A DNA stretch of 64,000 nt from an uncultured Clostridia bacterium (GCA_946555455.1 CAMNSU010000003.1:900-64899), one strand, 5' to 3'. Positions 15,044-15,176 are shown, counted from the first letter of the stretch. Numbers and translations are program-made. The notes: a model not told the origin generated them from the letters alone.

Positions 15044-15143
15044 GATTCACAATACCTCATTTCATTGATTTTTCGCCAATGCGCACGCGGGAGTTCCGCG
15101 CCGTCTTAGGGCAGGGAACGATTCAGCGGCACTTTTTAAATCC

Positions 15144-15176
15144 GTATAATATACGCTCTGCGTATATTATATCATG
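15144..15176. repeat. palindromic repeat ATAATATACGC-TCT-GCGTATATTAT(ATCATG), a back-to-back terminal-repeat pair of the intergenic element family
   Basis: Inverted repeat at 15146-15156 / 15160-15170. The 17-mer GCGTATATTATATCATG at 15160-15176 is identical to 17182-17198. The 10-mer GGGAGTTCCG at 15079-15088 is shared with 16992-17001. Confidence 0.5.

Follow-up and report, generated by a model that had tools for sequence, protein, structure and literature searches.

Upstream of a GH88 gene in an uncultured Clostridia bacterium lies a 25-nt palindrome, ATAATATACGC-TCT-GCGTATATTAT, at positions 15146-15170 of the window (the whole stretch of 64,000 nt that was analyzed). The question raised by this locus is where such a symmetrical sequence comes from and whether it is the remnant of a mobile element. 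The original prediction had suggested that it is, with the two terminal repeats of a longer element found near tadA, copy A, placed back to back after loss of the hairpin core between them. Another answer is probably the right one: the palindrome would be the -10 box of the GH88 promoter together with its own mirror image, starting a promoter-anchored repeat unit rather than marking a mobile-element scar, and the symmetry would belong to the DNA.

The palindrome itself is real and far beyond chance. It is present as predicted, and its fold, when compared with shuffled sequences, gives z = -4.8. Its arms are in fact 12 nt long (15145-15156 and 15160-15171) and surround a 3-nt centre. Within the window, the 11-mer half-site with at most one mismatch occurs 6 times, versus 1.22 expected, and none of 100 shuffles reaches 6; TATAATATAYGC occurs 5 times, versus 0.69 expected. 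The pieces from which a relationship to copy A had been deduced are also present. The 17-mer GCGTATATTATATCATG lies exactly at 15160-15176 and again at 17182-17198, and a second palindrome, ATAATATACGC-GTT-GCATATATTAT, does occupy 16923-16947. The 10-mer GGGAGTTCCG is found exactly twice, at 15089-15098 (plus strand) and at 16992-17001; the first copy had been placed at 15079, 10 bases off. Alone this 10-mer is weak (5 matches versus 2.3 expected, a number equaled in 10 of 100 shuffles), and its significance rests solely on the recurrence of CGGAACTCCC in homologous modules at two other loci, L001 and L056. The 96-nt core of copy A (17013-17108) is absent from 15044-15255, as had been claimed.

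The palindrome and its surroundings comprise the following features.

13925-15043, minus strand: the GH88 gene served by the promoter (Pfam PF07470)
15044-15080, minus strand: rest of the leader, including the ribosome-binding site GAGG; only the closest relative, L062, can be aligned with it
15081-15132, minus strand: hairpin of the repeat unit (H3), GTGCCGC...GTTCC-CTGCC-loop-GGCG-GGAAC...GCGTGCGC, a predicted fold that contains GGGAGTTCCG
15133-15144, minus strand: A-rich linker of the repeat unit, CGGATTTAAAAA, aligned with cgGATTTGAAAA of 17 other units
15145-15171, no strand assigned: the 27-nt palindrome, in minus-strand reading TATAATATACGC-AGA-GCGTATATTATA, present in the sequence itself
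15157-15159, minus strand: centre of symmetry, AGA, and expected transcription start, as placed by the usual sigma-70-type geometry
15166-15176, minus strand: extended -10 of the GH88 promoter, CATGA-TATAAT, and outer part of the palindrome's upstream arm (CATGCTATAAT in L063, CATGATATAAT in L066)
15189-15194, minus strand: TTGCAT, the -35 hexamer for GH88, separated from TATAAT by 17 nt (TTGCAT in L063, TTGCAA in L066)
15223-15250, minus strand: intrinsic terminator of the PF03601 gene upstream, beyond which the GH88 promoter region does not extend
15256-16332, minus strand: PF03601 membrane protein gene
16445-16900, minus strand: tadA
17303-18706, plus strand: MatE gene, divergent from tadA

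The flanking genes (GH88, the PF03601 gene, and tadA) are all on the minus strand, with MatE on the plus strand. When the locus is read on the minus strand, the order is TTGCAT, 17 nt, CATGA-TATAAT, ATACGC, AGA, GCGTAT, ATTATA, CGGATTTAAAAA, hairpin, and ribosome-binding site, and the upstream arm of the palindrome (plus-strand 15160-15171) is the GH88 -10 box plus ATACGC. The TATAAT box that had been proposed for GH88 is upheld by two syntenic relatives (L063 and L066), which have a -35/-10 pair at the same place. With a -35 and a -10 separated by 16-18 nt and kept at orthologous positions, as is typical of sigma-70-type promoters, the putative GH88 promoter (TTGCAT, 17 nt, CATGA-TATAAT) is of the ordinary sigma-A type. 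It is missing from the list produced by a simple promoter scan because TTGCAT matches TTGACA at only 3 of 6 positions. Given this geometry, transcription of GH88 would start at the dyad, 7 nt after the -10. The upstream arm then lies before the expected start; consequently, the palindrome could not fold in the GH88 mRNA and would act at the DNA level. The hairpin farther downstream (15132-15081) lengthens the GH88 leader. Its predicted fold in the window is not more stable than that of shuffled sequences (z = -0.55), and GGGAGTTCCG is simply the 3' side of its inner stem (GTTCC...GGAAC) followed by TCCC.

GH88 homologues of 91, 87, and 79% identity led to the syntenic contigs L062, L063-L065, and L066-L068. 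The -35 and -10 of GH88 align among the window, L063, and L066, and the homology ends one base after TATAAT. At GH88, both L063 and L066 are missing the other arm and the next ~90 nt; their leaders (42 and 66 nt) are unrelated and contain neither palindrome nor hairpin. The L062 contig begins inside a different hairpin, GTTCCTCGTCGGGATACGACTCGGAAC, a 27-mer that is also present in L008, and the last 60 nt of the GH88 leader are common to L062 and the window. Of two GH88 loci from farther away, one (L069) has a further GC-rich hairpin leader and the other (L070) has none. Parsimony suggests that the unit was gained in the lineage of the window and L062 rather than deleted elsewhere. The 3' boundary of the insertion cannot be defined from this comparison, as neither the L063 nor the L066 leader can be aligned with that of the window. 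In all four comparisons of a filled with an empty site, the left junction coincides with the 3' end of TATAAT, a breakpoint that is ambiguous in that the modules carry TATAAT too. At two otherwise nearly identical ilvD sites, a long module present in L001 is missing from L004. Here (L001 1840-1890 versus L004 4310-4355), the long hairpin of the unit has also been swapped for one of a different type, with the promoter, the palindrome, and the next hairpin still in alignment.

The extra piece at GH88 is one unit of ~100-125 nt, consisting of the mirrored -10, an A-rich linker, and a long hairpin, and it starts with ATACGC-AGA-GCGTAT-ATTATA directly behind the -10 hexamer. A pattern scan (ATAATATAYGC-N0-9-GCRTATATTAT) over 185,579 species genomes returned 58 loci, compared with a rough chance estimate of between one and ten. 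There are at least nine exact palindromes in the Clostridia MAG JAAWTG01, at least nine in CATIYX01, and further ones in one additional MAG and two rabbit-gut bins. Downstream of the palindrome, these MAGs have cgGATTTGAAAAGTGCC and then a long hairpin. Tandem copies with a period of 119-121 nt are found in L058 and L039, where successive units are joined by a hairpin, ATTATACCAnnnnGC-TTC-GCnnnnATGGTATAAT, that carries the next TATGGTATAAT promoter. When a single L058 unit is used as an nhmmer query, window 15118-15176 is recovered (E = 7e-9), and a profile of 18 units recovers both 15096-15175 (E = 4.5e-18) and 11567-11659 (E = 2.9e-14). The GH88 unit matches L010 exactly over 44 nt and is 94-96% identical to L039 and L058, and its H3 has the same layout as the H3 of the other units.

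Sixteen of the 18 units that can be oriented face a downstream gene on the same strand; the other two, in L010 and L043, point into terminators rather than genes. The downstream genes are functionally unrelated and include those for IlvD, MatE, a HAD hydrolase, a D-Ala-D-Ala carboxypeptidase, RsmD, GH3, a methionine-gamma-lyase-like protein, and QueA, among others. In the window, a unit or a palindrome precedes the genes for GH88, TadA, and a PadR-family regulator. Single units (L008, L032 at 7780, and the GH88 unit of the window) start with TATAAT and end after H3 with no inverted copy of the start, and in L013, in L030, and at tadA in both L063 and the window, the palindrome is found with the remainder of the unit missing. 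The GH88 palindrome is the conserved -10 region plus its mirror image, and it opens a multi-copy, promoter-anchored, gene-facing, and polymorphic unit. The family to which this unit belongs is one of mosaic, hairpin-rich intergenic repeats, restricted to one group of uncultured Clostridia. As judged from the alignments, its members sit at putative promoters, stack in tandem, and are gained, lost, or swapped between close relatives. In six cases (L027, L030, L033, L056, L062, and L069), a contig begins or ends inside repeat units, which suggests that the units break short-read assemblies and that their copy numbers are underestimated.

The symmetry of the units is maintained as their sequence changes. 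In the alignment of 18 units, 90% of cells are paired and 11 pairs have changed on both sides; none of 500 shuffles reaches either the observed percentage paired or the covariation score, and slid controls give 17-49% pairing. Hairpins with compensated changes lie at the unit start (H2) and, where present, at the end (H1). The inner arms vary, even among units of a single genome or a single array, but every variant is self-complementary (AGTCAC/GTGACT, AGTCG/CGACT, AGACG/CGTCT), and the centre varies in length from 2 to 5 nt. Between two related Lapin-bin MAGs, the first palindrome of the array reads ATAATCAT/ATGATTAT (L029) versus AAAATCAT/ATGATTTT (L051), a difference of one compensated double change. 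The types of mismatch, 19 G-T versus 13 A-C, identify no strand.

An indication of how such symmetry may arise comes from another full unit in the window.

11535-11693, minus strand: another full unit, before the PadR-family gene; absent in L062 (GH88 91% identical), L063, and L064

In L062 and L063, the PadR promoter reads TTGACA, 17 nt, TATAGT and contains only a 7-nt inverted repeat. In the window, the unit is inserted after TATAGTAT, and its first 14 new bases, instead of following the family consensus, repeat the resident -35 and spacer perfectly in inverted form. A 61-nt perfect palindrome spans this promoter (11633-11693; arms 11633-11659 and 11667-11693, 7-nt centre). Its 27-nt arms are 100% complementary; the arm with TTGACA is ancestral, being present in L062 and L063, and the other arm is new. 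This looks like the product of template switching or fold-back synthesis. The symmetry is thus created or maintained in DNA, and it includes sequence that would never be transcribed. No clean target duplication is found at the PadR junction: the empty form is GTAT-TGT-GTGAAGG and the filled form is GTATAAT...GGTATAAT-GTGAAGG, and the flanking copies are not duplicates of the empty-site sequence.

The relationship to copy A can be judged from the tadA promoter region and from a second long module, copy B.

16923-16948, no strand assigned: second palindrome, at the tadA-proximal promoter, TATGG-TATAAT-ATATGC-AAC-GCGTAT-ATTAT
16943-17187, minus strand: copy A, a long module with a direct copy of ATGRTATAATATAYGCAA on either side; L063 lacks it at the orthologous position
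17188-17198, minus strand: CATGA-TATAAT, the ancestral tadA -10, behind which copy A now lies; alignment with L063 extends from farther upstream as far as TATAAT
28880-29100, minus strand: copy B, a second long module, upstream of an AraC-family gene, starting after TGATATACT

Upstream of the first tadA -10 (17193-17188), the window and L063 align. L063 then continues with its own palindrome, CATGGTATAATAGACG-TAAAG-CGTCTATTATACCATG, and a ribosome-binding site; in the window, ~245 nt (17187-16943) have been inserted, ending in a second TATGGTATAAT before the palindrome at 16923-16947. Copy A is thus flanked by direct, not inverted, repeats of ATGRTATAATATAYGCAA. The suggestion that such palindromes are preferred insertion sites is supported by these data, since copy A adjoins the tadA palindrome and the L063 ortholog, which is free of copy A, has a palindrome of its own. 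The core of copy A is 91% identical to copy B over 132 nt, and the 3' end of copy A is 90% identical to a module upstream of ilvD in L001. Among the related-MAG copies examined, copy-A-like sequence was found only in L008 (48 nt, ~300 nt downstream of the palindrome), and the related hairpin of L008 is followed by the same AAAAAGTGCCGCTGAATCG as in the GH88 unit. To judge from these alignments, copy A is a different, longer module, and the GH88 unit is not its deletion derivative. The long and short modules are different modules of one mosaic system that have in common promoter-like starts and some linker and stem segments.

Several minor observations concern the long modules. The 96-nt core common to copies A and B (17013-17108 and 28923-29018) is 96% identical, the flanks being different, and contains a 13-bp perfect hairpin, ATGGAATATCCGG-CACGTGT-CCGGATATTCCAT, that matches no Rfam family; this hairpin recurs with compensated changes at L008 2099-2146. 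The long modules also have in common a conserved 3' segment, CGGAACTCCCnCGTTTTTGGGTAAC..GCGCCAAAAAGTACATTTATT, with a promoter after it, at L001 2034-2094, L056 2631-2560 (minus strand), L008 2330-2380, and window 16953-17001. This segment is ~90% identical between the window and L001, compared with ~65% for the GH88 coding sequence versus the same MAG (L010). L063 1-138, which like copy B lies upstream of the AraC-family gene, contains a unit-type hairpin and a degenerate joining hairpin, such that this gene has completely different leader modules in the window and in L063, whose GH88 proteins are 87% identical. The possibility of a small ORF in copy A was rejected, since such an ORF has no ribosome-binding site and is not conserved.

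In the model favored here, a repeat unit would have been added immediately behind the GH88 -10 hexamer in this lineage. The -10 box and the next six bases would then mirror the first dozen transcribed bases, with transcription proceeding from the centre. The mirror symmetry would be the structure by which units are copied and kept symmetrical, perhaps through fold-back or template switching on single-stranded DNA or perhaps through a hairpin-recognizing enzyme. Effects on the promoter would be secondary; candidates are the early-transcribed, -10-like TATATT, a convergent -10 on the other strand, and cruciform formation. We infer that the symmetry reflects the mechanism by which the unit is copied, but the compensated changes could instead reflect selection for function.

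An alternative is that the locus encodes an RNA element, that is, a structured 5' leader or small RNA whose hairpins control the stability, processing, or termination of the GH88 transcript. This is unlikely, although H3 is transcribed and shows compensated changes across units, with 17 G-U versus 7 A-C mismatches on the gene strand. In tandem arrays, moreover, upstream promoters would transcribe through the next palindrome, and H3 with TTTTCAA after it, when read on the opposite strand, resembles a terminator. However, the upstream arm is the conserved -10 and lies outside the GH88 mRNA, which excludes the palindrome as an RNA structure at a single promoter, though H3 may still act as one; the PadR palindrome even includes the -35 box. 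In addition, H3 sequences are swapped wholesale between close relatives, and the H3 of the window, as noted above, is thermodynamically unremarkable. Rfam yields nothing, either at the gathering threshold over the whole window or at a permissive one (E up to 10) over 15000-17350 and 28780-29320, where only chance-level matches were obtained.

About equally doubtful is the idea that the units behave as a promoter-homing, mobile "leader cassette." In this case, the ATTATA of the element would pair with the host -10 TATAAT in single-stranded DNA, and the resulting hairpin would define the point of insertion. The insertion would land behind the -10, mirror it, and in some cases bring a fresh promoter at its far end, so that repeated insertion would give tandem arrays of promoter plus hairpin. 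The guide mechanism of the IS200/IS605 family resembles such a process, with the difference that homing here would be aimed at the promoter box itself.

Less probable still is that the palindrome was selected as a promoter device, in which mirror symmetry around the start tunes the promoter by supercoil-driven cruciform extrusion, by sigma-dependent pausing at the downstream TATATT, or by a non-template hairpin that releases the -10 during escape. The dyad does coincide with the expected start, and the symmetry is kept through compensated changes at orthologous sites (L029 versus L051; window versus L063 tadA) and also occurs where the rest of the unit is lacking. Nevertheless, most window promoters have no palindrome, which is limited to three or four sites; the orthologous GH88 promoters of L063 and L066 would appear to work without one; and template switching from arm to arm would give the same pattern without selection.

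A similarly low probability is assigned to an operator, at which a dimeric repressor would bind TATAAT-N15-ATTATA over the -10 and the start and thereby co-regulate the carrier genes. The position, covering both the -10 and +1, is classic for repression; the outer half-sites TATAAT and ATTATA are nearly invariant in the 18 units; and the palindrome is also found by itself at the four sites given above. Yet the downstream genes have no common function, the half-site spacing changes with the length of the centre, and the invariance of the outer half-sites is already explained by the -10 box. Furthermore, the inner arms differ among units and are nevertheless self-complementary, something for which a protein that reads sequence has no need.

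The reading from which this work started, in which the termini of copy A stand back to back as an excision footprint, as solo termini, or as a core-deleted variant, is highly improbable: the 17-mer and the 10-mer do match the ends of copy A, with order and orientation preserved, and copy A is itself present or absent beside such a palindrome, but the 17-mer is promoter sequence (the extended -10 plus 6 nt) found in many units that have no copy A core, the 10-mer carries little weight alone, the repeats flanking copy A are direct, the 95 nt between the common pieces are homologous to a different, shorter unit, found many times in related genomes, to which the region aligns over its whole length, and relatives without the unit have an intact, plain promoter and an unrelated short leader, with no footprint. 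An observation that had been proposed as grounds for refuting this reading, palindromes at promoters with no association to the hairpin core, was largely made; the further implication that the palindrome is only an AT-rich promoter motif does not hold, since it is more than that. Some other classes of site were also rejected. An invertible promoter does not fit a centre of only 2-5 nt that varies in length, and a dif/lox-type or attC site, for which 10-nt arms would give a centre of 6-9 nt, was set aside, no recombinase having been found in the window.

The units can be compared with several known kinds of repeat. Correia elements of Neisseria (CREE/NEMIS) have 26-bp terminal inverted repeats and a TA duplication. 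Like them, the units are short (~100-150 nt), multi-copy, hairpin forming, intergenic, and polymorphic among strains, and they often lie just upstream of genes, with -10 boxes carried or created at their ends. Unlike them, single units lack bounding inverted repeats and a clean duplication, are anchored on an existing -10 hexamer, and stack head to tail. Of the features of a MITE, the units have a polymorphic presence and a high copy number, but single units have no terminal inverted repeats, the flanks of copy A are direct, and there is no target-site duplication of fixed length at the PadR site.

BOX elements of Streptococcus pneumoniae and the BIME/REP sequences of enterobacteria are also intergenic, modular hairpin mosaics that occur in variable combinations and numbers, and their modules are exchanged between sites, as are the H3 types and long modules here. 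REP/BIME sequences, which are linked to RAYT transposases, are found chiefly downstream of genes, and BOX elements are built of fixed A-B-C modules. The Clostridia units differ in starting at a promoter -10 box and facing the gene. The miniature elements of the IS200/IS605 family (PATEs, mobilized by "peel and paste") have hairpins near their ends and strand specificity, and they insert immediately 3' of a short specific sequence with no target duplication; in the four comparisons above, the left junction of the units falls at the 3' end of TATAAT, and the ATTATA of the unit can pair with the host TATAAT. The targets of known members of this family are tetra- or pentanucleotides (for example, TTAC) rather than a promoter box, and the junctions of the units are ambiguous since the modules themselves begin or end with TATAAT.

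Two processes that involve palindromes are also relevant. Template switching at quasi-palindromes converts imperfect inverted repeats to perfect ones, with both arms changing together, a pattern that matches both the PadR promoter and the L029 versus L051 difference. A palindrome across a -10, when extruded as a cruciform, can shut off the promoter, and a synthetic promoter regulated in this way was reportedly constructed by Horwitz and Loeb in 1988. However, the first of these is a mutational process and the second an engineered promoter; neither is a naturally repeated, genome-wide unit. The family appears to be undescribed, resembling mosaic intergenic repeats and distinguished by being anchored on, and mirroring, the -10 box.

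Searches for an associated enzyme or for relatives elsewhere gave little. No transposase or recombinase, and in particular no Y1 (HUH) transposase or RAYT, is present among 29 window ORFs scanned with Pfam, and ~9 further ORFs at 1-11500, inferred by synteny with L062 and L064, include no transposase or recombinase. A tblastn search of 540 kb of related loci with an approximate IS200 TnpA query, a weak test, had no match, and we know of no enzyme associated with this unit family. Exact-protein look-ups of the window TadA and GH88 proteins returned no record. Neither a pattern scan of viral contigs nor a blastn search of phage and plasmid collections with the unit gave a match, and nothing relevant was found in the literature on the half-site strings or on Clostridiales intergenic repeats. 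A metagenome scan with the PF03601 protein identified three loci of 63-67% identity, which have neither synteny nor units.

If this model is correct, one lineage of uncultured gut and digester Clostridia carries repeats that attach specifically to -10 boxes and rewrite the first 100 or more bases of the transcript. Their turnover between species with 87-91% identical GH88 proteins would be a source of rapid regulatory change, and contigs that break at the units would make them a nuisance in assembly. The family would also provide a test case for the effect of start-centred palindromes on initiation and for the spread of short, non-coding repeats without terminal inverted repeats or target duplications. 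For annotation, such palindromes should not be read as operators or as transposon scars.

A near-identical palindrome, with the same 11-nt arms and a 7-nt centre, is present in several Lachnospiraceae genomes and in a bin labeled Bifidobacterium (L002, L006, L012, L016, L018, L019, L028, L042, L052, and L054; for example, L028 1975-2050). Its centre is a ribosome-binding site (TTAGGAG), one of its arms extends into a gene that lies downstream of an aconitase-like gene, covering the start codon and the first codons (MDIEK), and ~46 nt resemble the unit start (85% identity). In L039, beside two units, an array of ~60-nt G/A-rich tandem repeats (3270-3568; …aaaagtaaaaggagg-gaaaacgggggcaaagaacggaggatatttctcccaag…) lies inside a called ORF that runs off the contig. 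The window also contains an ORF of 2554 aa with ~1-kb internal repeats (33042-40706; families D1-D3 and D6), followed by two large ORFs of 926 and 1297 aa. Finally, a Fur-family gene (55709-56110) lies directly upstream of a rubrerythrin gene (together 55709-56677) in a PerR-like arrangement. A PerR/Fur box was rejected for the palindrome, whose spacing is N15 rather than 7-1-7; the expected 7-1-7 box has the TATAAT/ATTATA half-sites in common with the palindrome, but not the spacing.
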